From Candidatus Desantisbacteria bacterium CG1_02_49_89 (GTDB lineage: Bacteria; Desantisbacteria; UBA1551): a stretch of DNA of 64,000 bases. Below the pieces are notes generated by a model that saw only the letters and a list, made by a program, of their open reading frames with translations, did no database searches and was not told the origin of the DNA. Location: positions 437-64,436 of the forward strand of contig MNUP01000033.1 of assembly GCA_001871075.1 (NCBI GenBank). The letters run 5' to 3'. This document shows positions 1,874-59,408 of this stretch, one piece after another (positions within the stretch are counted from its first letter, which is position 1; every line of letters starts with the position of its first letter). The position numbers and the translations under genes are program-made.

Positions 1874-3025
1874 TTAATAATTACGGTTTTTCTTTATGTT
1901 TTCCGAGTTCAGGGATATCAATCTTTTAAGTCTGGATTCCTTTTCTTCCTCGGATACCTTATCCTGCATGCCAAGCGCTTTCGTATTAGGGCGGTCAGAG
2001 TATTTGAACATAAAAGCGTTGTTGAAACGCGTTCCCTTTACTATTTCAAGGGTCTGCAGGAAATCTTCTTCGGTCTCACCCGGGAACCCCACTATTATAT
2101 CCGTGCTGAAAACCGCGCCTGGTATCCTGTCTTTTATCGTCTTGATCAGGTCTAAGTAATGCTTCCTTGTGTATCCCCTGTTCATCGCCTCAAGGATCCT
2201 GTCTGACCCTGACTGCAAAGGCAGGTGGAATTCTTTTTCCATTTTATCCGATGCCGCTATTGCCTCTATCAGTTCCAGCGTCATGTCTTTCGGGTGCGCT
2301 GTCATATAACTTATTTTTTCAATTCCCTTTATCTTCTCTATTTCTTTCAGCAGTTCAACAAAATCATTACTTTTTGACGCACGACGCACGACGCACGACG
2401 CACGACTGTCTTTATAGGAGCACACATTCTGCCCCAGCAGCATTATCTCTTTAAAACCACCTGCGGCCACCCTCTCTGCTTCCGCGATGATCTCATCTGC
2501 CGGCCTGCTCTGTTCTCTTCCGCGCAAATGCGGCACAACGCAGTAGGAGCAGAAGTTGTCGCACCCCCTTATGATAGGCACGTATGCCATTTCCATATTT
2601 TTCCTCTCCACCGGAGGGAGAGGATTAAGGTGAGGGGGATTAAATTTCCCCGTCTCAACGATCCTTGACTTATTCTCTATCGCCTTTTTTACGAAATCGC
2701 CGGCTATACCGATGTTTCCGGGGCCAATAACAACCTGGACCCAGGGAAACCTGTTTAAAATGCCTGTTTTCTCCTGCTCAGCAAGGCACCCGCACACGCC
2801 TACCAGCAGGCCCGGTTTCTTTTCCTTGAGCTTCTTTGTTTCGGAAAGTATCGTGTAGAACCGCTGGACCGCGTGCTCTCTCACAGAACAGGTATTGAAA
2901 ATTATAATATCTGCTTCATCCGCATCTTTTATCTGTCTGAATCCGTGTTCAACCAATTGCCCGGCAATGCATTGCGAATCGTATTCATTCATCTGGCATC
3001 CAAAGGTTTTTATGTAAAATTTCAT
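1874..3025 (-). CDS. MiaB/RimO-family radical-SAM methylthiotransferase
   Basis: N-terminal MTTase domain (IKTFGCQMNEYDS). Radical-SAM CxxxCxxC (CDNFCSYCVVP). At 383 aa it appears to lack a C-terminal TRAM domain. It contains an in-frame heptamer array (GACGCAC)x4. Confidence 0.75.
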   Translation of the reverse strand: MKFYIKTFGCQMNEYDSQCIAGQLVEHGFRQIKDADEADIIIFNTCSVREHAVQRFYTILSETKKLKEKKPGLLVGVCGCLAEQEKTGILNRFPWVQVVIGPGNIGIAGDFVKKAIENKSRIVETGKFNPPHLNPLPPVERKNMEMAYVPIIRGCDNFCSYCVVPHLRGREQSRPADEIIAEAERVAAGGFKEIMLLGQNVCSYKDSRASCVVRRASKSNDFVELLKEIEKIKGIEKISYMTAHPKDMTLELIEAIAASDKMEKEFHLPLQSGSDRILEAMNRGYTRKHYLDLIKTIKDRIPGAVFSTDIIVGFPGETEEDFLQTLEIVKGTRFNNAFMFKYSDRPNTKALGMQDKVSEEEKESRLKRLISLNSENIKKNRNY

Positions 3026-3315
3026 TTTAAAAACCTCTGGATGATTTTACCGCAGGTTCCTATCAATTTAATTTTTCTTTTCTTTGACATAGTTTTTATT
3101 TTTCTCTCTGTCTTCATCGCATGCCTGCGGAATACGTATACCTTAGCATATACCAGCTTCACGGGCCCCCTGCCTTTTACATATTTAGCCCCTTTGCCCG
3201 TGTTGTGCAGGGCGATCCGTTTTTTCAGGTTATTGGTATAACCCGTATAGAATGTCCCGTCTTTGCATTTAAGGATATATACGAAAAACCTTTTTATGCT
3301 TTTCGCGCGTTTCAT
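3022..3315 (-). CDS. GIY-YIG nuclease-domain protein (UPF0213/YhbQ-like)
   Basis: FFVYILKCKDGTFYTGYTNNLKKRIALHN is the classic GIY-YIG signature. 97 aa. It overlaps the upstream gene by 4 nt. Confidence 0.7.
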   Translation of the reverse strand: MKRAKSIKRFFVYILKCKDGTFYTGYTNNLKKRIALHNTGKGAKYVKGRGPVKLVYAKVYVFRRHAMKTERKIKTMSKKRKIKLIGTCGKIIQRFLK

Positions 3316-4235
3316 TGGGCTGTTTCGGATGCGGTTGCGCGCGTGAAGATCGTTTCCTTAAAAACCTCTTTTATTGGCTTGCCTGTCCAGGTATCAGGAA
3401 TAACCAGGCCAAGCGCGTAGATCGCTGCGCCTGAAACGTCGCAGATAGAGACCGGAGCCTGGATCTCGTAATCGGATTTTACGGATGCCCCTGAGCAGAT
3501 AAAGGGAACACACATATCGCGCGGGTCTGTTGTCCCGTGCCCTTTCCCGTGCCCTCCGTGGTCAGCGCTTATTATAATAAAAGCCTGGTCCAGGATGCCC
3601 GCGGAACGGAGCCCGTCTAATAAAACACCTATAGCTTTGTCGCAATCCTCTACAGATTTAACCTGGTTAGCTGAACCCCAGCCCCAGCTATGCCCTGCTG
3701 AATCAGGATCAGGCAGGTGCACAAAACATAAATTAGGTTTTTCCTCAATAATATACTCGGCAGCCGCCCTGGCTATTACCCCGGCATTGCTGTTTACCCA
3801 CCTGAACTTATCCACTGTTCCCGGCTTGGCTATATGCAGAAGTTTTTGTTTGCCGGTAAACATCGCGGTTTTCAGGCCGGCTGCTTTTGCCAGCTCGAAT
3901 ACCGTTGTCACCTGAACGTATCCTTTTTCCGGTTTGTAATCGTTCCATGTTATTTTATGCACGCTTGCCTTAACGCCTGTCAGCATTGAGGTATGGGCAG
4001 GCAGCGTCACGCTGGGCACGATACTTTGCGCCCAGAAGGTATAAGCGCCTCCGGAAGACAAAGCGCGGATATTCCTGGACTCCGCCCTGCAAAAAACTAT
4101 GTCAGAACGGGCGCCGTCAATGCTTATTATAAGCACGTAGTTGAACGGTGTTAACGCAACGGAAACCTGCGCTGCCGTGAAAACCAGCACAAAAACAAAT
4201 AATCCGGCTAAAACTCTTTTGATCCGTTGCTTCAT
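3312..4235 (-). CDS. Secreted alkaline-phosphatase-superfamily nucleotide pyrophosphatase/phosphodiesterase
   Basis: Signal peptide. ISIDGARSD metal-site motif. HLPDPDSAGHSWG. SADHGGHGKGHGTTD. Confidence 0.7.
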   Translation of the reverse strand: MKQRIKRVLAGLFVFVLVFTAAQVSVALTPFNYVLIISIDGARSDIVFCRAESRNIRALSSGGAYTFWAQSIVPSVTLPAHTSMLTGVKASVHKITWNDYKPEKGYVQVTTVFELAKAAGLKTAMFTGKQKLLHIAKPGTVDKFRWVNSNAGVIARAAAEYIIEEKPNLCFVHLPDPDSAGHSWGWGSANQVKSVEDCDKAIGVLLDGLRSAGILDQAFIIISADHGGHGKGHGTTDPRDMCVPFICSGASVKSDYEIQAPVSICDVSGAAIYALGLVIPDTWTGKPIKEVFKETIFTRATASETAQ

Positions 4236-4571: not shown

Positions 4572-6080
4572 TTAAATAACGAACAGGTTGGCGGAAGAGA
4601 AGTTGGCGTCCGTGGTAAGGTTTACTCCCAGTCTTTTCAGGCCGGCTTCATCGCCGGGAGTGGGTATATGGGTCATATGGACTTCGCAGCCACGGAGTTT
4701 CTCCAGTTCCTTCAGCGCGATCTCGGCAGTGTGGTTGGTGGCAGCGCTTATCGAAAGGGCCGTAAGCGCTTCATCAAGGCTAAGGCTCTCGGATTCAGCT
4801 CCGAGTATGCCTTCTTTCATTTTCGCTATGCAGCTGAGCAGGTTCGGGGAAAGAAGAAGTATTCCGTCAGGTATGTTCGAAAGCGCTTTTATAGCGTTTA
4901 TAACAAGGCTTGACGCCGCGTGCATCAAGGGCGAGTTCTTACCCGTGATCATACGGCCGTCAGGCAGCTGTATTGCCGCCCCGCAGAACACGCCTTTGTT
5001 TCCCTTGCCTTTTTTCTCAGCGTCATCCGCGGCTTTGCGCGCGGGCAGGACAACGCCGCGGCCCTCCGGCTTTAACCCGAGTTCCTCCATGATCTTTTTC
5101 GCCTTCTCCACTGTTTTTTCGTTCTCTATGCCCTGGAAATATTCGCAGTTGTAACGCAGGAACCTGCGTATGATCTCCTGTTTCGCTGCTTCCTGCACGA
5201 TTTCGTCGTCTATTATCCCGAAACCGACCCTGTTCACTCCCATATCGGTCGGGGACTTGTACGCGGACTCCCCGAGGATCTTCTGCAGTATTTTCGCGAG
5301 TATCGGGAAACTCTCAACATCCCTGTTGTAATTAACGGAAACCTTGTTATAGGCGCTGAGGTGGAATGGGTCAACCAGGTTGAAGTCAAGTATATCCGCG
5401 GTTGCAGCTTCATACGCGATATTGACCGGGTGCTTCAGAGGCAGGTTCCAGATCGGGAAGGTCTCGAATTTCGCGTATCCCGAATGCATGCCTTTCTTGT
5501 GATCGTGGTACATCTGCGAAAAACAGGTTGCCAGCTTGCCGCTGCCCGGGCCGGGCGCCGTGATTATCACTATAGGTTTTTTGGTGGGTATGTATTCGTT
5601 TTTACCCAGGCCTTCGTCGCTGACAATAGCGTCCGTGTCAACGGGATAACCTTTTATGACCCCGTGGGTATATACCTTTATTCCCCTGCGCTCCAGCTTG
5701 TTTTTGAACTTCACAGAAAGAGGCTGGGAATCGAACCTGGTGATAAGCACAGCGGTTACGTCCAGGTTCCATTTGCGAAGGTCGTCCATAAGCTTCAGGG
5801 TCGCTATGTCATACGTAATGCCGAAATCACCCCTTATCCTCCCCTTCTCTATGTCACCCGCAAAAATGCACAGGATTATCTCAACCTTTTCCTTAAGTTC
5901 CTGCAGGAGCTTTATCTTAACGTTGGGGTCGTATCCGGGCAGGACCCTTGCGGCGTGATAATCGTAGCACAGCTTTCCGCCGAATTCAAGGTAAAGCTTG
6001 TTGTTGAACTTCCTGACCCGGTCAAGTATCTCCGCCGTTTGCTCTTTCAGGTATTTTTCGTTGTCAAACCCGGTCTTCAT
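4572..6080 (-). CDS. UPF0371/DUF1846 family protein
   Basis: MKTGFDNEKYLKEQ...LCYDYHAARVLPGYDP matches the characteristic UPF0371 N-terminus. It lies 12 nt downstream of thrS. Confidence 0.75.
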   Translation of the reverse strand: MKTGFDNEKYLKEQTAEILDRVRKFNNKLYLEFGGKLCYDYHAARVLPGYDPNVKIKLLQELKEKVEIILCIFAGDIEKGRIRGDFGITYDIATLKLMDDLRKWNLDVTAVLITRFDSQPLSVKFKNKLERRGIKVYTHGVIKGYPVDTDAIVSDEGLGKNEYIPTKKPIVIITAPGPGSGKLATCFSQMYHDHKKGMHSGYAKFETFPIWNLPLKHPVNIAYEAATADILDFNLVDPFHLSAYNKVSVNYNRDVESFPILAKILQKILGESAYKSPTDMGVNRVGFGIIDDEIVQEAAKQEIIRRFLRYNCEYFQGIENEKTVEKAKKIMEELGLKPEGRGVVLPARKAADDAEKKGKGNKGVFCGAAIQLPDGRMITGKNSPLMHAASSLVINAIKALSNIPDGILLLSPNLLSCIAKMKEGILGAESESLSLDEALTALSISAATNHTAEIALKELEKLRGCEVHMTHIPTPGDEAGLKRLGVNLTTDANFSSANLFVI

Positions 6081-6092
6081 TGACCTTTACTC

Positions 6093-7820
6093 CTATTCTT
6101 TGAGTTCTCCCTCGAACTTACCGACAAACTCCTCTATTTTTATAGCGCCCGCGTTGCCGCCTTTCTGGGAACGGACCGAAACAGTGTTTTCAGAGACTTC
6201 CTTGTCCCCTATTACCAGCATATACGGGACCTTTTCCATCTGCGCGAGCCGTATTTTCGCCTGCAGGGTCTGGTTGTCCTCATCGATAGCAACTCTTGCG
6301 CCCTTTTCTGCCAGAGTTTCCTTTACTTTTCTTGAGTATTCGTTATGCCTGTCAGCTATGGGTATCAGTTTTACCTGGACAGGGGCAAGCCAGAGCGGGA
6401 AAGCCCCGTTGTAGAATTCGATCAGGATCGCCATGAACCGCTCAAAAGAACCCAGTATGGCGCGGTGTATCATTATCGGCTCGTGCTCTTTGCTGTCCTC
6501 GCCCACATAGGAAAGCTTGAAAGCCGCGGGAAGGTTGAAATCCACCTGTATCGTGGTGCACTGCCATTCCCTGTTAAGCGCGTCCTTGATCTTAATGTCT
6601 ATTTTAGGCCCGTAGAAAACGCCTTCGCCCGGGTCGATCTGGTATTTTGTCTCGTTTTTTTCAAGCGCTGTCTTCAAAGCGGAAGTGGCAACCTCCCAGT
6701 TCTCAAGTGTCCCCACGTATTTCTCAGGCCTGGTGCTGACATACATCACGTAATCCTTGAAACCGAACTTTCCCAGGAAAAACGAAGTGAGCTTGAGCAC
6801 GCCTGATACTTCGTCCTCTATCTGGTCTTTCCTGCAGAAGATATGCGCGTCGTCCTGCGTGAAGCCGCGCACCCTGAGCAGGCCGTGCAGGACGCCCGGT
6901 TTTTCGTAGCGGTACACCGTACCCATTTCAGCCCAGCGTAAAGGCAGATCCCTGTAGCTGCGGGTCTGTGTCTTGTACACCATAATATGGCCGGGGCAGT
7001 TCATGGGCTTGAGCATGTAACTTTCATTCTCGAACTCCATCGGCGGGTACATGTTTTCCTTATAGAAATTAAGGTGGCCGCTTGTTTTCCACAAACCGGT
7101 CCTTGCTATGTGCGGTGAGTAGATCAGATCGTAGCCGTTCTTTAAATGCGTTTCAACCCAGAAATTCTCTATTATCCTGCGTATCAGCGCGCCCTTAGGA
7201 TGCCAGTAGATCAGGCCGGGCCCAGCTTCCTCCTGATGTATGCTGAAAAGGTCAAGTTCCTTACCGAGCTTCCTGTGGTCCCTTTTTTTGATCTCTTCCA
7301 GCCTCTGGATGTATTCGTCCAGTTCCTTCTGGGAGTAGAACGCGGTCCCGTATATGCGCTGCAGCATCGGGTTCTTCTCGCTTCCCCTCCAGTACGCTCC
7401 TGCAACGCTGAGCAGTTTGAACGCCTTGATCTCGCCCGTTGACGGAACATGGGGTCCCCTGCACATATCCGAAAAATCCCCGCATTTATAAAATGTCACC
7501 TTCTGGCCGGGTATTTCGGCCAGCAGGTCAAGCTTGTACGCCGCGCCGGCGTCTTTAAGGTTTTTTTCCGCTTCCTTGCGGTCAACCTCGATCTTCTCAA
7601 AAATGCTGTCCGCGTTGATGATCTCGCGCATTTTTTCTTCTATTTTTACCAGGTCTTCTGTCGCAAAAGGGTCCTGCCGGTCAAAATCGTAGTAGAAACC
7701 GTCTTCTATGGAAGGGCCTATCCCGAATTTCACGCCAGGGAAAAGCTCTTTTACCGCGTATGCCAGTATGTGGCTCGCGCTGTGCCTGTAAACGTCAAGA
7801 GGATATCTTTCCTTGCTCAT
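6093..7820 (-). CDS. thrS: Threonyl-tRNA synthetase
   Basis: Class II aaRS core. HRKLGKELDLF motif. N2/editing domain (HSASHILAYAV). C-terminal anticodon-binding domain. At 575 aa it begins at the N2 domain, with no TGS domain. Confidence 0.9.
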   Translation of the reverse strand: MSKERYPLDVYRHSASHILAYAVKELFPGVKFGIGPSIEDGFYYDFDRQDPFATEDLVKIEEKMREIINADSIFEKIEVDRKEAEKNLKDAGAAYKLDLLAEIPGQKVTFYKCGDFSDMCRGPHVPSTGEIKAFKLLSVAGAYWRGSEKNPMLQRIYGTAFYSQKELDEYIQRLEEIKKRDHRKLGKELDLFSIHQEEAGPGLIYWHPKGALIRRIIENFWVETHLKNGYDLIYSPHIARTGLWKTSGHLNFYKENMYPPMEFENESYMLKPMNCPGHIMVYKTQTRSYRDLPLRWAEMGTVYRYEKPGVLHGLLRVRGFTQDDAHIFCRKDQIEDEVSGVLKLTSFFLGKFGFKDYVMYVSTRPEKYVGTLENWEVATSALKTALEKNETKYQIDPGEGVFYGPKIDIKIKDALNREWQCTTIQVDFNLPAAFKLSYVGEDSKEHEPIMIHRAILGSFERFMAILIEFYNGAFPLWLAPVQVKLIPIADRHNEYSRKVKETLAEKGARVAIDEDNQTLQAKIRLAQMEKVPYMLVIGDKEVSENTVSVRSQKGGNAGAIKIEEFVGKFEGELKE

Positions 7821-8041
7821 ATGGCCTCTTTAATAAATAGATTAAATATATAATATAAAACCTGAAAATAGAGAATTGAAAATTGACCACAATCTCGCAA
7901 TCTCCTTTATCTATTGCTCTATTTTCTATTGCTCCAGTTTTCCGCAGTGCATATCAAAAAGACAGAAAATAGAAAATTGAGCAATAGACCGTCCGCCAAT
8001 CATGCTGGGCGGACTCTGATTTTTCGCAGAGCGAAAAATCT

Positions 8042-8115
8042 GGGCGGTACCCGGCTCGAACGGGTGACCTCCACGATGTCAACGTGGCACTCTAACCAAC
8101 TGAGCTAACCGCCCG
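8042..8115 (-). tRNA. tRNA-Val(GAC)
   Basis: Minus-strand sequence GGGCGGTTAGCTCAGTTGGTTAGAGTGCCACGTTGACATCGTGGAGGTCACCCGTTCGAGCCGGGTACCGCCCA folds as a cloverleaf with anticodon GAC. Confidence 0.85.
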
Positions 8116-8210
8116 CACATTCAAACACTCTTAGCGAAGTTGAAAACTGCGACCACAGGGAGTCCCGCATCTCCGATGGTACATCGGAGCATCGGGGAGC
8201 TAACCGCCCG

Positions 8211-8289
8211 TTTTAATACAGTTAAAAGTTGCCCGCCCCGACAACCATCGGGGCGAGGTCTCGCCCTGATTGAAATCAGGGCGGAAAAG
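8211..8289. repeat. Twin-hairpin element, copy A (CCCCGACAACCATCGGGG + CGCCCTGATTGAAATCAGGGCG)
   Basis: About 95% identical to 58728-58805. A diverged relative lies at 8623-8690. Confidence 0.5.
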
Positions 8290-8395
8290 CTGAAAGTTAA
8301 AAACTAAAATAGCCTGATAGAAAATAGAAAATTGAGAATAGACCGTCCCGATGTAACATCGGGACTCCACCACTTTTCCCTTGTTGGGAAAAGTG

Positions 8396-8470
8396 GTGCC
8401 AAGGGGCGGAATTGAACCGCCGACGCACGGATTTTCAGTCCGTCGCTCTACCAGACTGAGCTACCTTGGC
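8396..8470 (-). tRNA. tRNA-Phe(GAA), with CCA encoded
   Basis: GCCAAGGTAGCTCAGTCTGGTAGAGCGACGGACTGAAAATCCGTGCGTCGGCGGTTCAATTCCGCCCCTTGGCACCA. Confidence 0.85.
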
Positions 8471-8756
8471 ACATCCTGGTTAATGATAAAGAAAAGATTG
8501 ATGAACCTTTCAGTCCGTCGCTCTTCCTGGGTGATCTGCATAAAAGAATGCGCGTCGCTTTGCTCTTCCACCCGTCGAAGACATAAGTGATGTCTTCGAC
8601 CCAGACTGAGCTACCTTGGCACGTTAAATACAGTGATGAGTGAAAAGTGTCGCCCCTTCGGCGACCCGCCGTTGAGGCGGGAAAAGTCAAAAGATCATAC
8701 AACAGACTGCCTGTCCGTAATTACTGATATTCGCTTAATTGATTGACGCTTTTTAT

Positions 8757-8831
8757 TGTCATTGCGAGCCCGAAGGGCGCGGCAATCTCGTCGTTAAAAG
8801 CGAGATTGCTTCGCTGTCGCTCGCAAAGACA
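8757..8831. repeat. MITE-like element E3, a short member of the GTCATTGCGAG family
   Basis: Termini GTCATTGCGAG / CTCGCAAAGAC. Internal GCAATCTCG...CGAGATTGC. Confidence 0.45.
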
Positions 8832-9063
8832 GTTGTCAAGGTATTATACGATTCTCAGTAGATAACTGGATAACTTGACGATTGGATAACTGGTTACTGC
8901 TAATCGTCCGATAATCTAATAGTCTAATTGACTAAAATATTATACCATATATTTAATCTATGTCAAGTTTTTAGATAATTTTAACAGGTTCAAAATAAAA
9001 TAGGCAGACTTTTTAAGGTCTGCCTATTTCTTTTGCCCTTTTATTCTTTTTCCCGGCCCGGTC

Positions 9064-11939: not shown

Positions 11940-12992
11940 CTATTTTCCGTGCAGCATGTTCTTCAAAAGGCCGGGATTGCTTGACCTGGAGATCGCCTCT
12001 TCATAATCGATCAGCCCCTTTTCATGCAGTTCCTTCAAAGACTGCTCCATGGTCGTCATCCCCTGTTCCCTTCCCAGCTGGATAGCGCTGGGTATCTGGT
12101 GGGTCTTGCCCTCGCGTATCAGGTTCGCTATGGCAGCCGTAAAAAGCATTATCTCCCTTGCCGCGACCCTGCCCCCGCCTATACGGCTGAGCAGCTGCTG
12201 GGAAATGATCCCCTTAAGGGCCATTGAAAGCTGCGCCCTTATCTGCTGCTGCTGGCCGACGGGAAAAACGTCTATGATGCGGTCCACGGTCTGGGCCGCG
12301 TCGATTGTATGGAGCGTGGAAAACACAAGATGCCCTGTCTCCGCGAGAGTTATCGCGGCAACAATGGTCTCCAGATCCCTCATCTCGCCCACCAGGAGCA
12401 CGTCCGGGTCCTCGCGCAGGGCGTCCTTCATGGCGCCCGCGAAGGAACCCATGTGGACGCTGAGCCCCCGTTGATGCACTACTGCTTTTTTCTTCGGGTA
12501 TATGAACTCGATGGGGTCTTCGACCGTGATAATGTGGCATTTCTTCTCGCTGTTTATCAGGTCTATCATGGCTGCAAGGGTCGTGGATTTCCCGCTGCCC
12601 GTAGGGCCGGTCACAAGCACCAGGCCCCTGGGAAGCCTTGCAAGGTCATAAGCGATCTTCGGCATATCAAGGCTTTCCATTGACGGAATCTTCGTGGGTA
12701 TCGGCCTGAGCGCTACCGCTATGCCGCCCAGTTCCTGGAATACGTTAACACGGAACCTGCCTTCAGTGATCCCGTATGAAAAATCCAGAGAGTAGTTCTC
12801 CTCGAACATTTTTGCCTGGTTTGTGCTCATCATGCTGTAAGCCAGGTTTTTTGCGTCAGCTGTGGTGAGATCCGTTTCGTTCATGGGGATAAGCTCACCT
12901 GCCAAACGGACCATCGCGGGCATGCCCGCGCTCAAATGGATGTCTGAAACTCCCTTTCTAACGCTCTCCTTCAGAATATCGTTGATGTCCAT
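11940..12992 (-). CDS. pilT: Type IV pilus retraction ATPase PilT
   Basis: Walker A GPTGSGKSTTLAAMID. PilT family architecture. 350 aa. Confidence 0.85.
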   Translation of the reverse strand: MDINDILKESVRKGVSDIHLSAGMPAMVRLAGELIPMNETDLTTADAKNLAYSMMSTNQAKMFEENYSLDFSYGITEGRFRVNVFQELGGIAVALRPIPTKIPSMESLDMPKIAYDLARLPRGLVLVTGPTGSGKSTTLAAMIDLINSEKKCHIITVEDPIEFIYPKKKAVVHQRGLSVHMGSFAGAMKDALREDPDVLLVGEMRDLETIVAAITLAETGHLVFSTLHTIDAAQTVDRIIDVFPVGQQQQIRAQLSMALKGIISQQLLSRIGGGRVAAREIMLFTAAIANLIREGKTHQIPSAIQLGREQGMTTMEQSLKELHEKGLIDYEEAISRSSNPGLLKNMLHGK

Positions 12993-38253: not shown

Positions 38254-38352
38254 AACTTCAGATCCTGGATACTGGATGCAAGATGCTGGATAAAATCAAT
38301 TTGAAGGTTGTGTGGGAATAAAAACCGAAAATAGAACAATGGAAAATAGACC

Positions 38353-38439
38353 GTCCCGACCGTAGCCCGCCACGGTTATTGGCGGGCGCAGGTCCCTGTG
38401 TTAAGTTCCGGATTTATAGGAACTACAGGGATCGGGACT
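38353..38439. repeat. Structured element, copy 1
   Basis: GTCCCGACCGTAGCCCGCCACGGTTATTGGCGGGCGCAGGTCCCTGTGTTAAGTTCCGGATTTATAGGAACTACAGGGATCGGGAC. It is 95% identical to 54175-54260. Confidence 0.45.
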
Positions 38440-38568
38440 CCAGATTCTTCGCGGAGCGAATGCAAGTAAGCAAACACTGAGAATAGAGAATTGAAAATAG
38501 ACCGCAATGTCGCTTTGTCTTTTCTATTCTCGATTTTCTATTGCTCCATTGCTCTAGTCCCGATCTTA

Positions 38569-38650
38569 TATCGGGACTGCCGAGGGCGGGATTTGAACCC
38601 GCAAGGGTTACCCCATACGCCCCTTAAACGTACGTGTCTGCCAGTTCCAC
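38569..38650 (-). tRNA. tRNA-Leu (type II, long variable arm). The anticodon loop is unusual; best parses are AAG or TAA.
   Basis: GCCGAGGTGGTGGAACTGGCAGACACGTACGTTTAAGGGGCGTATGGGGTAACCCTTGCGGGTTCAAATCCCGCCCTCGGCA. D-arm, T-arm and acceptor are canonical Leu-like. The anticodon stem-loop folds as either a 7-nt loop TTAAGGG or a 9-nt loop. Confidence 0.7.
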
Positions 38651-38707
38651 CACCTCGGCTAATAATCTATTGCTCTATTTTCTATTGCTCTGCTTGAAGG
38701 GGTTTAT

Positions 38708-53332: not shown

Positions 53333-53587
53333 TTAATATAGTCAGATATATAAATAGAATTGAGAATTTAAAAACGGGTCGGCTTCGAACCATATTTAAA
53401 AGCTGAAAATGGATAATAGAGCAATAGACCATCCCGATGTAACATCGGGACTCTATTTTTTCGCTCTGCGAATGCTCAATACTGAGAATGGAAAATAGAG
53501 CAATAGACCGCAATTTCGCAATTCCTTTCTCTATTTTCTATTGTTCTATTGCTCCATTGCTCTATTTTTTCGCTCTGCGAAAAAATG

Positions 53588-53659
53588 AGCGGGAGACGGG
53601 ATTCGAACCCGCGACATCTACCTTGGCAAGGTAGCACTCTACCACTGAGCTACTCCCGC
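53588..53659 (-). tRNA. tRNA-Gly(GCC)
   Basis: GCGGGAGTAGCTCAGTGGTAGAGTGCTACCTTGCCAAGGTAGATGTCGCGGGTTCGAATCCCGTCTCCCGCT. Confidence 0.85.
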
Positions 53660-53770
53660 TTAAAATACAGTTGTCAGTTGTCGGTTCTCAGTTGTCAACT
53701 AAAAATCAAACTCTTTGATCTATTTTCAATTTTCCTTTGCTCGATTGCTCTGATCCCGATTTTATCGGGA

Positions 53771-53800
53771 TTTGCGAGGGAGAGGACTTGGTCCTTTGTG
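53771..53800 (-). pseudogene. tRNA-Leu 3'-end remnant followed by the family post-tRNA hairpin
   Basis: TTTGCGAGGGAGAGGACTTGGTCC mimics the tRNA-Leu(TAG) 3' end TCTGCGAGGGAAGGGACTTGAACCC. No complete cloverleaf. Confidence 0.3.
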
Positions 53801-54029
53801 AATCTTCGCCAGAACCGGGTGAAGTCTCAGATTCACCCGGAGCCGGGGAATTTTGCTGACGCCCCGATGGTAGTCATCGGGGCTTTACCAGTGGCGCAAA
53901 ATTCCTTTCAAGTCTTTGTCAAAACTTGAAAATGGAAAATTGAACAATAGACCGCAATCTCCTTAAGTATTTATCTATTGCTCTATTCTCTATTTTCGAT
54001 TGCTCCGATTTTTCGCCTCGCGAAAAATC

Positions 54030-54111
54030 TGCGAGGGAAGGGACTTGAACCCCTAAGCCTTTCGGCATACGGTCCTAAGCCGTACGCGTATACCAGTTCC
54101 GCCACCCTCGC
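54030..54111 (-). tRNA. tRNA-Leu(TAG)
   Basis: GCGAGGGTGGCGGAACTGGTATACGCGTACGGCTTAGGACCGTATGCCGAAAGGCTTAGGGGTTCAAGTCCCTTCCCTCGCA. Confidence 0.85.
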
Positions 54112-54174
54112 TTACAATCTATTCTCCATTTTCTATTTTCGGACTCTGAAAATAGAACAATAGAGCAATTGACC

Positions 54175-54260
54175 GTCCCGACCGTAGCCCGCCACGGTTA
54201 TTGGCGGGCGCAGGTCCCTGTGTTAAGTTCCGGTTTTATCGGAACTACAGGGATCGGGAC
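54175..54260. repeat. Structured element, copy 2 (spacer between tRNA-Lys and tRNA-Leu)
   Basis: Near-identical to 38353-38439. Confidence 0.45.
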
Positions 54261-54286
54261 TCTGATCTTTCACCTCGTGAAAGATC

Positions 54287-54358
54287 TGCGCTGCGCCGGA
54301 TTTGAACCAGCAACCTTGTCCTTAAGAGGGACCTGCTCAACCGTTGAGCTAGCAGCGC
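54287..54358 (-). tRNA. tRNA-Lys(CTT)
   Basis: GCGCTGCTAGCTCAACGGTTGAGCAGGTCCCTCTTAAGGACAAGGTTGCTGGTTCAAATCCGGCGCAGCGCA. Anticodon loop CTCTTAA. Confidence 0.75.
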
Positions 54359-54475
54359 ATATTACTACGATGAAAGAAAATAGAAAATGGAAAATAGACC
54401 ACAATCTCGCTATTCCTTAATCCATTGCTCTATTCTCTATTGCTCGATTGTTCTGTTTTTCCCGAAGGGAAAAAC

Positions 54476-54549
54476 AGCGCCCGGGGCGGCTCGAACGCCC
54501 GACCTGCTGCTTCGAAGGCAGCCGCTCTATCCATCTGAGCTACGGGCGC
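54476..54549 (-). tRNA. tRNA-Arg(TCG)
   Basis: GCGCCCGTAGCTCAGATGGATAGAGCGGCTGCCTTCGAAGCAGCAGGTCGGGCGTTCGAGCCGCCCCGGGCGCT. Confidence 0.8.
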
Positions 54550-54664
54550 ACGCATTCGTCTACACCCAACGCCCGGAGCGAACTTCCATTAATACCCTCA
54601 GGGTCCATTAATAAATATATTAGTATATCATAAATAATAAAAAATGTCAAATAAAACCAGGAAG

Positions 54665-57596: not shown

Positions 57597-57820
57597 GTGT
57601 CAGAATGTCAGAGCAGAATTATGGCTCTTTGACTTATATCTTCAATACTTTTTAATCAAGCCGCGTTTTCCTTTCTATATTTTCAATTGCTCTGTTTTCA
57701 GCTCTGCGAAATAAAATCTGAAAATGGAAAATAGAGCAATAGACCGAAATGTCGCTTCTTTTTTCTCTATTTTCTATTGTTCTATTGCTCCATTGCTCTG
57801 ATTTTCCCTGCGGGAAAATC

Positions 57821-57899
57821 TGGGGTGAGCGAGGGGATTTGAACCCCCGGCCACTTGGGCCACAGCCAAGTGCTCTAACCGGACTGAGCTACGCCCACC
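57821..57899 (-). tRNA. tRNA-His(GTG), with G-1 and 3' CCA encoded
   Basis: G-GTGGGCGTAGCTCAGTCCGGTTAGAGCACTTGGCTGTGGCCCAAGTGGCCGGGGGTTCAAATCCCCTCGCTCACCCCA. Confidence 0.85.
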
Positions 57900-58042
57900 A
57901 CCTAATAATCCATTTTCTATTTTCTATTATCGATTACTCGATTGCTCTGTTTTTCCCGCTGGTACTGCCTGAGAATAGAGAATGGAACATAAACCGTCCC
58001 GATGTTACATCGGGACTCTGATTTTTCGCTTCGCGAAAAATC

Positions 58043-58116
58043 TGCGCCTGGCCCGATTCGAACGGGCGGCCACCTACTTAGAAGGCAGGTGCTCTATCCA
58101 ACTGAGCTACAGGCGC
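58043..58116 (-). tRNA. tRNA-Arg(TCT)
   Basis: GCGCCTGTAGCTCAGTTGGATAGAGCACCTGCCTTCTAAGTAGGTGGCCGCCCGTTCGAATCGGGCCAGGCGCA. Confidence 0.85.
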
Positions 58117-58223
58117 ACACCCATAAAAACAGTGTCAAAGAGTCAGAGTGTCAGAGTGTCAAAGTAAAAGATAAGAATCCTTAGATATTTGGAGCGAAGG
58201 GAAACTGCCTGTCCGCCGACTTG

Positions 58224-58293
58224 CCCGCCGTAGCACCAACAAACCTTTTTCGAATAGAAAAATATTAGGTTTGTTGGGTATCTGCGCAGGCGG
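58224..58293. repeat. GAATA-loop covarying hairpin element, copy 2
   Basis: CCCGCCGTAG + CCAACAAACC / GGTTTGTTGG + TTTTTC-GAATA-GAAAAA + GCAGGCGG. Confidence 0.4.
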
Positions 58294-58432
58294 AAGCATA
58301 TTGCGGCAAACCCACGACGTTTAGTTAATACACAAATACCCTTAAACAAAAAGAACTAGAGAATAGAAAATTGAGCAATAGACCGTCCCGATGTCACATC
58401 GGGGCTCCAAATTTTCGCGTTGCGAAATTTTA

Positions 58433-58507
58433 TCGGGAAGGTGGGATTTGAACCCACGGCCTCCTGCTCCCAAAGCAGGCGCGCTAGCCAGGCTGCGCTA
58501 CTCCCCG
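58433..58507 (-). tRNA. tRNA-Pro(TGG)
   Basis: CGGGGAGTAGCGCAGCCTGGCTAGCGCGCCTGCTTTGGGAGCAGGAGGCCGTGGGTTCAAATCCCACCTTCCCGA. Confidence 0.85.
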
Positions 58508-58727
58508 TCGCCTGCTTTGCTCGCCCAGGGCATTCTGCAGGCGAACAAAGCGTTTGTTCGTTCCACTCACTCCATGCCCGTGAACGACATAAGTGATGTC
58601 GTTCACCCCAAAGCAGGCGCGCTAATCCTGTGTGCTATGCAATAACGGAAGTGTGGCTCGTTCCACTCGCATCGCACCCGTAAACGACATAAGTGATGTC
58701 GTTTACCCAGGCTGCGCTACTCCCCGC

Positions 58728-58805
58728 GTCTAAACAGTTAAAAGTTGCCCGCCCCGATAGCCATCGGGGCGAGGTCTCGCCCTGATTGAAATCAGGGCGG
58801 AAAAG
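58728..58805. repeat. Twin-hairpin element, copy B
   Basis: CGTCTAAACAGTTAAAAGTTGCCCGCCCCGATAGCCATCGGGGCGAGGTCTCGCCCTGATTGAAATCAGGGCGGAAAAG, as at 8211-8289. Confidence 0.5.
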
Positions 58806-58817
58806 ATAAAAATTAAA

Positions 58818-59408
58818 TTAAAACAGTTTCGAAAGAACCTTTTTTACTTTCCGAAGGGCTTTTGCGCGGTGGCTGATCCTGTTCTTTGTTTTCATACCCA
58901 GCTCTGCGAAAGTTTTGCCGTATCCTTCCGGGATGAAGACCGTATCATAGCCAAAACCTTCCGTTCCCTTTATTTCCGCGGATATCCTGCCTTTGCATAT
59001 CCCGGTAACTGTTTTTACCGGTCCTTTTGATCCGGCTAAAGCAACAATGCATGTAAATCTTGCTTTTCGTTTGCCCGGTCGCATGTCCTTCATTAACCTT
59101 AGCAGTTTCCTGTTATTATCAGCGTAAGTGCAATCCTCTCCAGCGAACCTTGAAGAGCGAACTCCCGGCTTGCCCTTAAGCGCCCCTACCACCAAACCTG
59201 AATCATCGGCAAGGGCCATTCTGCCGGTTTTCCGGGAGATCACAGTTGCTTTTTTAACCGCGTTAGCCCTGAAAGTCCTGCCGTTTTCCACAACTTCAGG
59301 CATCGGTGGAAAATCCTTCAGGGTCAATATTTTTATTTTAAGCCCCCTAAGGATCTTCTTAATTTCGCGAACTTTGTCAAAATTGTTTGTTGCCAGCACC
59401 AGTTCCAT
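58818..59408 (-). CDS. rdgB: Non-canonical purine NTP pyrophosphatase (RdgB/HAM1)
   Basis: MELVLATNNFDKVREIK. Ham1 fold motifs (FGYD). Confidence 0.85.
   Translation of the reverse strand: MELVLATNNFDKVREIKKILRGLKIKILTLKDFPPMPEVVENGRTFRANAVKKATVISRKTGRMALADDSGLVVGALKGKPGVRSSRFAGEDCTYADNNRKLLRLMKDMRPGKRKARFTCIVALAGSKGPVKTVTGICKGRISAEIKGTEGFGYDTVFIPEGYGKTFAELGMKTKNRISHRAKALRKVKKVLSKLF

Follow-up and report, generated by a model that had tools for sequence, protein, structure and literature searches.

In the 64,000-nt stretch of DNA from Candidatus Desantisbacteria bacterium CG1_02_49_89, which belongs to a Crystal Geyser groundwater population (contig MNUP01000033.1; hereafter the window), three of the ten tRNA loci, those of tRNA-Phe, tRNA-Val, and tRNA-Pro(TGG), carry an exact partial copy of the tRNA 5' end, and in each case the fragment precedes the intact gene. 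The Phe and Pro fragments are interrupted by a structured repeat of 76 to 83 nt, which we named E. When about 150 kb of DNA representing three or more Candidatus Desantisbacteria species were searched with an nhmmer profile, eight E copies were detected, all of them inside 5' tRNA fragments and none elsewhere. With moderate confidence, we read the extra 5' pieces either as small, selfish, non-autonomous insertions into tRNA genes, present as scars or as resident elements, or as scars of break repair; they would be tolerated as a duplicated, removable leader. As far as the literature searched shows, E and the 5'-side duplication are undescribed; that tRNA genes serve as insertion targets with partial duplication is already well known.

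All tRNA genes of the window (called with ARAGORN and Rfam) and all features of the Phe, Val, and Pro loci lie on the minus strand; positions within tRNAs are given in tRNA sense. The Phe/Val feature, which is adjoined by the ThrRS gene, is part of a 1,243-nt intergenic region found in 10 independent assemblies with 0 to 2 single-nucleotide polymorphisms, none of them inside the feature. An assembly artefact was therefore rejected. An earlier analysis made from the letters alone (the sequence-only reading) had noticed that the complete tRNA-Phe and tRNA-Val genes are each preceded by a second copy of their own 5' end, and exact repeats of 22 and 14 nt bear this out. Exact repeats of 20 and 14 nt inside 150 nt are far above chance.

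At the tRNA-Phe locus, a copy of positions 1-20 plus two leader bases (gtGCCAAGGTAGCTCAGTCTGG; 8601-8622) is an exact 22-nt repeat of 8451-8472. It is followed by a 76-nt E module in the D loop of the fragment (8525-8600; nhmmer E-value, 1.2e-19) and then by a copy of positions 21-37 (AGAGCGACGGACTGAAA; 8508-8524; 17 of 17 bases identical to 8450-8434), which ends at 37/38 in the anticodon loop. The sequence-only reading had placed the 76-nt insert correctly in the D loop but had let the second part of the copy run only to position 35. E directly follows G18-G19 of the fragment, replacing nucleotide 20. It comprises the perfect 11-bp hairpin H1 at 8600-8574 (GTCGAAGACAT-CACTT-ATGTCTTCGAC; 11/11 paired), the second helix P2 (GGGTGG...TCACCC; 6/6 paired), and the 3' end AGGA. 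A 37-nt spacer (8471-8507), for which comparison with the upstream leader and with the tRNA revealed no significant match, separates the fragment from the intact tRNA-Phe(GAA) gene (8394-8470; ARAGORN; Rfam tRNA, 71.7 bits). On the other side, the motif CACTGTATTTAA (8624-8635, by motif search) lies 3 nt upstream of the fragment +1 and is preceded by a twin hairpin read from the sequence, cccgcctcaacggcggg then tcgccgaaggggcga (8650-8681), the second hairpin of which scored terminator-like.

At the tRNA-Val locus, the copy is shorter and comprises positions 1-13 plus one leader base (cGGGCGGTTAGCTC; 8197-8210; a 14-nt exact repeat of 8102-8115). The insert that follows (8116-8196) consists of a long hairpin, recognized as an inverted repeat (8164-8196), and about 48 nt of unassigned sequence, and measures 81 nt instead of the roughly 85 nt reported before; downstream of it lies the intact tRNA-Val(GAC) gene (8041-8114; ARAGORN and Rfam). 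The hairpin belongs to the common GTCCCGAT...ATCGGGAC-type hairpins of the genome. Alignment revealed no homology between the Val and Phe inserts, and nhmmer found no E in the Val insert. Thus, the proposed conserved hairpin insert holds for Phe, where it is a member of a family of eight, but not for Val. We also considered the Val insert and the Phe spacer as decayed later parts of a tRNA and rejected this, since neither has significant similarity to the same tRNA. Upstream of the Val fragment, inverted repeats form a twin hairpin (CGCCC...GGGCG, AGACCT, CGCCC...GGGCG; 8233-8284), which shares 94% identity over 84 nt with the one in front of the Pro fragment (58734-58817). Homology of the twin hairpins, which had been proposed for Phe and Val, therefore applies to Val and extends to Pro, while the Phe twin shares the design and has weak sequence homology only.

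The motif search placed AACTGTATTAAA at 8212-8223, 2 nt upstream of the Val fragment, and this sequence matches the native tRNA-Val leader in L138 (aatgtattaaat beside GGGCGG; L-numbers denote loci from related genomes or metagenomes). Allowing at most one mismatch, the motif AACTGTATTWWA occurs four times in the window (1.03 expected), and three of the four occurrences lie 1 to 4 nt upstream of a tRNA +1 or fragment +1. As the sequence-only reading had stated, they are found at both fragments (8624-8635 and 8212-8223) and at tRNA-Gly (53661-53672). We rejected AACTGTATTTAA as a -10 box, because at 1 to 4 nt from +1 the start would fall inside the tRNA; the actual sigma-70 promoter lies 320 nt upstream. 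This sigma-70-type promoter of the Phe-Val operon (8939-8966; TTGACA-16-TATAAT with TG upstream) matches the consensus at 12 of 12 positions, and TTGACATAGATTA...TATAAT is also present 29 to 105 nt upstream of tRNA-Phe in L137 and L138. Since the promoter is orthologous to that just upstream of tRNA-Phe in these relatives, the block is best read as leader and spacer, and 8966 down to 8041 would be one precursor transcript. Between the promoter and the Phe twin hairpin there is an extra leader of about 240 nt (8701-8938, minus strand), in which inverted repeats are nested (8757-8769/8819-8831 and 8777-8790/8801-8814) and short GATAACTGG repeats occur. It is absent in L137 and shorter in L138.

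The tRNA-Pro(TGG) locus (58508-58830) is a third and clearer case, which was absent from the sequence-only reading. Here, a twin hairpin (58734-58817) is followed by a copy of positions 1-20 (58707-58726; a 20-nt exact repeat), by an E module in the D loop with the same hairpin top as at Phe (GACATCACTTATGTC; 58626-58706; nhmmer E-value, 1.4e-17), and by a copy of positions ~20a-37 (TTAGCGCGCCTGCTTTGGG; 58607-58625), which ends at 37/38. The TAGCGCGCCTGCTTTGGG of the fragment is identical in the intact gene. At position 37/38, a second unit, which we named E' (58508-58606; nhmmer E-value, 7.6e-18), consists of an E-type module (58606-58525) and a tail, and is directly followed by the intact tRNA-Pro(TGG) gene (58433-58507; ARAGORN and Rfam). 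Part of the tail (58519-58509; CAAAGCAGGCG) is an 11-nt antisense match to positions 25-35 of the fragment and the tRNA; the orthologous tail in L130 has an 8-nt antisense match with a matching base change. The predicted E' fold closes on the helix between the tail and positions 25-35 (z = -3.75). A conserved sigma-70 promoter precedes tRNA-Pro in L130, L144, L145, L146, and L147 and is missing in front of the Pro-Arg-His tRNAs of the window, where the twin hairpin region (58734-58830) directly follows the rdgB stop codon. A near-identical twin hairpin is present at the same place in L148 (750-820), the RdgB protein of which is 83% identical to that of the window.

Beside the window copies (one in Phe, two in Pro), E was found in L130/L140 Pro-TGG, L138 (=L133) Phe, L132 Ser-TGA, L134 Pro-CGG, and L134 Ser-GGA, so that its hosts are five different tRNAs (Phe, Pro-TGG, Pro-CGG, Ser-TGA, and Ser-GGA). 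Six copies directly follow G18-G19 and replace nucleotide 20, and two are at 37/38 of tRNA-Pro(TGG). A scan of metagenomes with a 20-base pattern gave six loci, all of them adjoining tRNAs, and L134 additionally holds a divergent copy. A scan of a genome collection with the bare 15-mer GACATCACTTATGTC was discarded: its 119 matches were chance matches, mostly coding, and none had a hairpin context.

All E copies share the design of H1, P2, and an NGG(A/G) end. The 11 bp of H1 are paired across copies (11/11), with compensatory changes at three pairs: in the lower stem, one position shows four base-pair types and two others show two types each. By contrast with this varying lower stem, the top GACAT-CACTT-ATGTC is invariant in seven of the eight copies. 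P2 alternates among GGGCAT/ATGCCC, GGGTAT/ATACCC, and GGGTG/CACCC. In one copy, the common GTCCCGAT...ATCGGGAC hairpin of the genome substitutes for H1, and P2 is retained. When folds were compared with those of shuffled sequences, E' units reached z = -3.4 to -3.75 and D-loop units z = -1.3 to -2.4. The two tRNA-Phe loci (window and L138) hold E of different subfamilies, which favors independent arrivals at the same site. Furthermore, the interior of the L132 Ser E contains an 11-nt exact match to tRNA-Phe, and that of the L133 Phe E a 14/16 match to the anticodon arm of tRNA-Ser(TGA). Such matches would suit a patchwork made by template switching; with 49 comparisons made, they are suggestive only.

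E and the other hairpins could be miniature derivatives of single-strand DNA transposons of the REP/RAYT or IS200/IS605 kind, moved by a tyrosine HUH transposase encoded elsewhere; entry would occur into the single-stranded loops of cloverleaf-folded tRNA genes during heavy transcription or replication, and the duplications would be a separate by-product. In line with this, E is short, non-coding, and multi-copy and has the hallmark hairpin with a covarying lower stem and an invariant top, one copy carries the GTCCCGAT...ATCGGGAC hairpin where H1 would be, and GTC...GAC hairpins are abundant around the tRNAs of this genome. The insertion points are loops as well: E enters the D loop and the anticodon loop, and the 3'-side element described below the T loop. 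Like E, REP/BIME and Rickettsia palindromic elements are short, non-coding, non-autonomous multi-copy hairpins that can lodge in RNA or protein genes without destroying them. However, REP elements are normally scattered between genes, whereas E is restricted to the loops of tRNA fragments (8/8) and has a two-helix body. No Y1 transposase gene was detected in the window or the related loci examined, nor was a RAYT-type transposase identified, and neither a second subterminal hairpin nor a conserved target tetranucleotide beyond GG was seen. Since the mechanism makes no target duplication, the repeats of 13 to 39 nt would remain unexplained. We therefore regard this origin as quite improbable.

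A Pfam scan of about 45 open reading frames (ORFs) of the window revealed ordinary chromosomal genes and no transposase, integrase, or reverse transcriptase; the modules are therefore non-autonomous. Rfam 15, searched at E-values up to 10 with the Phe/Val, Pro, Leu/Gly, and L138 regions, returned nothing credible but tRNA. Known ribozymes, introns, and leaders were rejected on this basis; no group I core or other intron family appeared, and E matched no family. E and the leaders had no match in viral contigs, phage records, or plasmid records either. A tRNA intron was rejected because at every locus the 3' half of the interrupted copy is missing and the tRNA downstream is intact. A bulge-helix-bulge intron was rejected on the predicted folds, where the pairing partners of the first E bases lie in H1 instead of at the 3' junction. 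The present case nevertheless resembles tRNA introns of archaea and eukaryotes, split tRNAs, and bacterial group I introns in that these, too, have inserts at 37/38 and in the D loop, and part of a tRNA intron, like the E' tail, forms pairs with the anticodon arm. It differs from them in that the interrupted copy has no 3' half, the intact gene follows, neither a bulge-helix-bulge in the predicted folds nor a group I core is present, and the organism is a bacterium.

The boundaries of the repeats bear on how the copies arose. The direct repeats begin at tRNA +1, with 0 to 3 shared leader bases in seven of nine loci, and their end point varies (position 11, 13, 19-20, 26-27, or 37), with two different ends in Pro-TGG alone. 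In the window, they measure 22, 14, and 20 nt, whereas L130 has repeats of up to 39 nt; the inserts span 37 to 100 nt. One could think that replication slippage simply duplicated the leader and the 5' half in tandem and that the copies then drifted neutrally, with the hairpin being incidental. The 7 to 9 leader bases common to both copies in L134 Pro-CGG and L138 Phe would agree with it. However, outside these bases, the leader of the fragment is unrelated to that of the tRNA (global alignments give about 50% identity), the repeats start at +1 in most loci, and homologous E copies occupy the same tRNA position across five tRNAs. We rejected this explanation because of the unrelated leaders and find it hardly credible.

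The direct repeats of tRNA sequence that flank each insert and stop at the tRNA end could also be left and right attachment sites of former tyrosine-integrase elements that entered the 5' half of tRNA genes, carried their own copy of it, and have lost nearly all of their interior, as cis-mobilisable elements have. Similarly, at the tRNA attachment sites of islands, prophages, and cis-mobilisable elements, direct repeats of tRNA sequence flank the insert, the gene stays intact, and the anticodon loop and T loop are favored break points. The anticodon loop at 37/38 is reportedly, after Williams in 2002, a classic crossover region of one integrase subfamily, and classic 3'-side repeats are present in these genomes, too. 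But known elements duplicate the 3' part of the tRNA, whereas in our loci the duplication concerns the 5' part, with the intact gene downstream of the insert. Moreover, the inserts are just 37 to 100 nt long, no integrase was found in the 64-kb window or in the flanks of the related loci, and the repeat end varies (11, 13, 19-20, 26-27, or 37) even within Pro-TGG. A sequence-specific integrase would not allow the same E module in five tRNAs. In our view, attachment sites are a very unlikely explanation. A partial parallel exists in Escherichia coli, where 178-bp repeats downstream of tyrT contain the last 19 nt of tRNA-Tyr. As in our loci, partial tRNA copies lie there beside an intact gene in the same transcription unit; unlike ours, they are 3'-end copies in tandem, at one locus only, and lack a conserved hairpin module.

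Comparison with relatives revealed empty, occupied, and decayed sites. Their relatedness is given as protein identity to the ThrRS or RdgB of the window. L137 (ThrRS, 74%) has a compact Phe-Cys-Val operon with spacers of 2 to 3 nt and no fragment, and Phe and Val lack a fragment in L136 (ThrRS, 79%) as well. The Pro-TGG site is empty in L145 (RdgB, 65%) and L144 (RdgB, 66%). The empty sites that the sequence-only reading had suggested looking for in related genomes thus exist for Phe and Val as well as for Pro. Beside the window, occupied sites were found in L138 (ThrRS, 72%), with a Phe fragment that has mismatches and an E of a subfamily other than that of the window; in L130/L140 (RdgB, 67%), with positions 1-37 of Pro plus E' and no D-loop E; in L146 (RdgB, 67%), with Pro positions 1-11, a hairpin, Pro positions 16-27, another hairpin, an ORF for a GIY-YIG nuclease, and the intact tRNA; and in L147 (RdgB, 68%), which begins like L146 on a contig that ends before the remainder. 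Presence or absence at the same site thus varies among relatives with shared gene order; the site is highly polymorphic and has been hit more than once. In L132, L133, and L134, the fragments are decayed, so the fragment itself is not under constant constraint. This comparison of sequences argues against an essential role of the arrangement. As a further sign of the operon as an insertion hot spot, L136 harbors toxin-antitoxin-like genes (DUF433, a PIN-domain protein, and a small ORF; 915-1519 and 1762-1971) between tRNA-Phe, tRNA-Cys, and tRNA-Val.

Related loci also point to a possible source of the breaks. In L134, which shares the repeat families of the window genome, there are two genes for predicted single-domain GIY-YIG nucleases of about 85 amino acids (2079-2336 and 6384-6638; Pfam E-values, 1.7e-17 and 5.4e-14). 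One of them ends inside the 5' fragment of tRNA-Pro(CGG), and the other is flanked by a 15-nt repeat of the tRNA-Ser(GGA) 3' end. The L146 ORF of this kind (2404-2655; Pfam E-value, 2.9e-11), located downstream of the Pro-TGG fragment and upstream of the tRNA, has no canonical start codon. SegB of the T-even phages T4 and T6 is a GIY-YIG endonuclease that cuts inside tRNA genes and drives recombination-dependent segmental amplification of the tRNA region (PMC13096335, 2026). Its site motif is RAWTSGAAC (PMC13096335). By our own comparison, this motif reads roughly as the reverse complement of the T-loop consensus GTTCSAWTY. The L146 and L134 genes resemble free-standing nucleases of the SegB type in being small and embedded in tRNA regions, within or beside partial duplications, and in Seg systems, repair yields amplified or rearranged tRNA segments with junctions in tRNA sequence (PMC13096335). 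Unlike the SegB case, ours concerns a bacterial chromosome, the predicted nucleases have about 85 amino acids, the window loci lack a nuclease gene, and E has no Seg counterpart.

From these observations, we propose the following course of events for small insertions into tRNA genes. Each event would have put foreign sequence into the 5' part of a tRNA gene, after position 11-13 (D stem), after G18-G19 (D loop), or at 37/38. In every case, there are two copies of the tRNA segment that lies 5' of the break, which leaves a complete gene downstream and a truncated copy beside the old leader. What would make insertions tolerable is that the 5' part they interrupt exists in duplicate and that the entire block lies in the pre-tRNA leader. 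Being downstream of the operon promoter at 8966-8939, the block is probably transcribed as a long leader and discarded at the RNase P cut of the intact tRNA, and the insertion would thereby be nearly neutral. The presence of E in loops of disabled copies only may mean either that it targets tRNA loops or that it survives only there. The likeliest engine would be small free-standing GIY-YIG nucleases that make double-strand breaks in tRNA genes, with repair from an occupied allele or by template switching. In related loci, genes of this kind are found within or next to similar duplications, and we consider these nucleases the most plausible, albeit unproven, driver. The suggestion of the sequence-only reading that a small element targeting tRNA 5' halves has left serial scars thus stands in outline, given the eight copies in five tRNAs, the empty sites, the other fillings such as the GIY-YIG ORF of L146, and the decayed fragments. 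It does not stand in full: mobility is unproven, the Val insert is a different element, and no enzyme is linked to the element within the window.

Several observations weigh against insertion scars. In the about 150 kb searched, no E was found outside a tRNA fragment, none in transit, and no enzyme tied to H1. No GIY-YIG gene lies beside the three window loci; the only one of the window (3025-3357, minus strand) is in an ordinary operon away from tRNAs. Break repair does not predict repeats that start at tRNA +1. In the window and in L130, the Pro fragment is 100% identical to its own tRNA, though the two tRNAs differ at several positions; to account for this, one has to assume gene conversion, a recent origin, or selection. 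Over the first 52 nt, E' retains about 98% identity between genomes the proteins of which are about 67 to 68% identical, and its antisense tail tracks the tRNA sequence. The top and loop of H1 are invariant in seven of eight copies across at least three species with proteins of about 65 to 72% identity. The invariant H1 top and the conservation of E' fit purifying selection on a functional RNA just as well as they fit recent spread.

These conservation patterns, the compensatory changes that keep both helices paired, and the E' folds that beat shuffled sequences speak for a second reading, in which fragment plus E would be a functional part of the pre-tRNA leader. Such a structured, cis-acting RNA module, for instance a protein-binding or processing platform or a decoy 5' half, would control how the tRNA behind it folds, how it is processed, or how much of it is made; alternatively, it would act as a small RNA released from the spacer. 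E. coli offers examples of functional RNAs that are cut from tRNA spacers, such as that from the leuZ 3' external spacer. However, the arrangement is absent in sister genomes with compact operons, and the fragments are decayed or split by further hairpins in L132, L133, L134, L146, and L147. Moreover, the Val locus has a fragment but no E, the folds of the D-loop units are not clearly above those of shuffled sequences, and a match in Rfam is absent. On balance, a functional leader is possible but rather unlikely. For the more specific proposal of the sequence-only reading, a leader that mimics the tRNA 5' half and pairs with the 3' acceptor strand for regulation or processing, we obtained no positive support; the arrangement is dispensable in sister genomes and the fragment is not always kept. 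It is conceivable, however, in view of the invariant hairpin top and of the fragments that equal their own tRNA in the window and L130.

A second insert family was found on the 3' side of the tRNAs for Leu-TAG, Gly, Phe, and Val. It is a structured element of about 75 to 150 nt with the conserved parts GCCACYGGTAAAGC and CCGGCTYCGG (Y = C or T), located at 53773-53914 (minus strand) in the window, at 5497-5660 and 6101-6325 in L138, at 12091-12205 and 12317-12475 in L140, and at 2206-2325 and 2429-2545 in L145. It is followed by a copy of the last 17 to 21 nt of the tRNA, and the repeat sometimes extends 25 to 31 nt into the trailer; at L140 Gly, it reaches 51 nt. In all seven copies, the head of the element is antisense to the T loop of its own tRNA over 8 to 12 nt and changes with the tRNA. 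A stem of the element covaries (cacttttc/gaaaagtg versus gaattttgc/gcaaaattc), and the L145 copies have GAGTGGAACGAC in common with E. The element is present even in the otherwise compact L145 operon and has no Rfam match.

Together, E and the 3'-side element might represent non-coding homing modules of a new class, each suited to one of the three loops of a tRNA gene (positions after 19, 37/38, and 56/57). The target could be found via a short antisense segment matched to the adjoining tRNA sequence, and harm would be avoided because the interrupted tRNA part is duplicated. This idea is based on the match of the E' tail to positions 25-35 and of the 3'-element head to its own T loop (7/7); we consider it speculative and unlikely to hold as a whole.

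Other repeats surround the tRNAs of the window. The same set follows almost every one of them (7857-7994, 38327-38690, 53391-54551, and 57672-58427): a terminator-like hairpin (GATTTTTCGC...GCGAAAAATC), in most cases together with a GTCCCGATGTTACATCGGGAC hairpin, and then a long inverted repeat with AGAGCAATAGAGAATAGAGCAAT-type and GGTCTATTGCTCTATTTTCCATTTTC arms. GGTCTATTGCTCTATTTTCCATTTTC occurs seven times (0 expected). Since L137 and L145 are without these post-tRNA repeats, the tRNA operons of the window lineage have become swollen with repeats. Away from these sets, 521-598 and 1773-1850 are the two arms of a perfect inverted repeat; they are 78 nt long, 100% identical, and separated by about 1.2 kb.

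At known landing sites in tRNA genes, the 3' end is duplicated and an integrase is carried, whereas here the 5' end is duplicated around tiny non-coding inserts, in a candidate phylum without a cultured member. In practice, fragments of this kind can cause errors when tRNAs are annotated, promoters predicted, or genomic islands detected by tRNA repeats. If the link to GIY-YIG nucleases is true, a homing nuclease could colonise an essential RNA gene without an intron or intein, and this would explain why tRNA operons swell from 3-nt spacers to hundreds of bases in some lineages. Should the homing modules be real as well, they would, with the GIY-YIG genes, represent a third way into an essential gene, beside introns and inteins.

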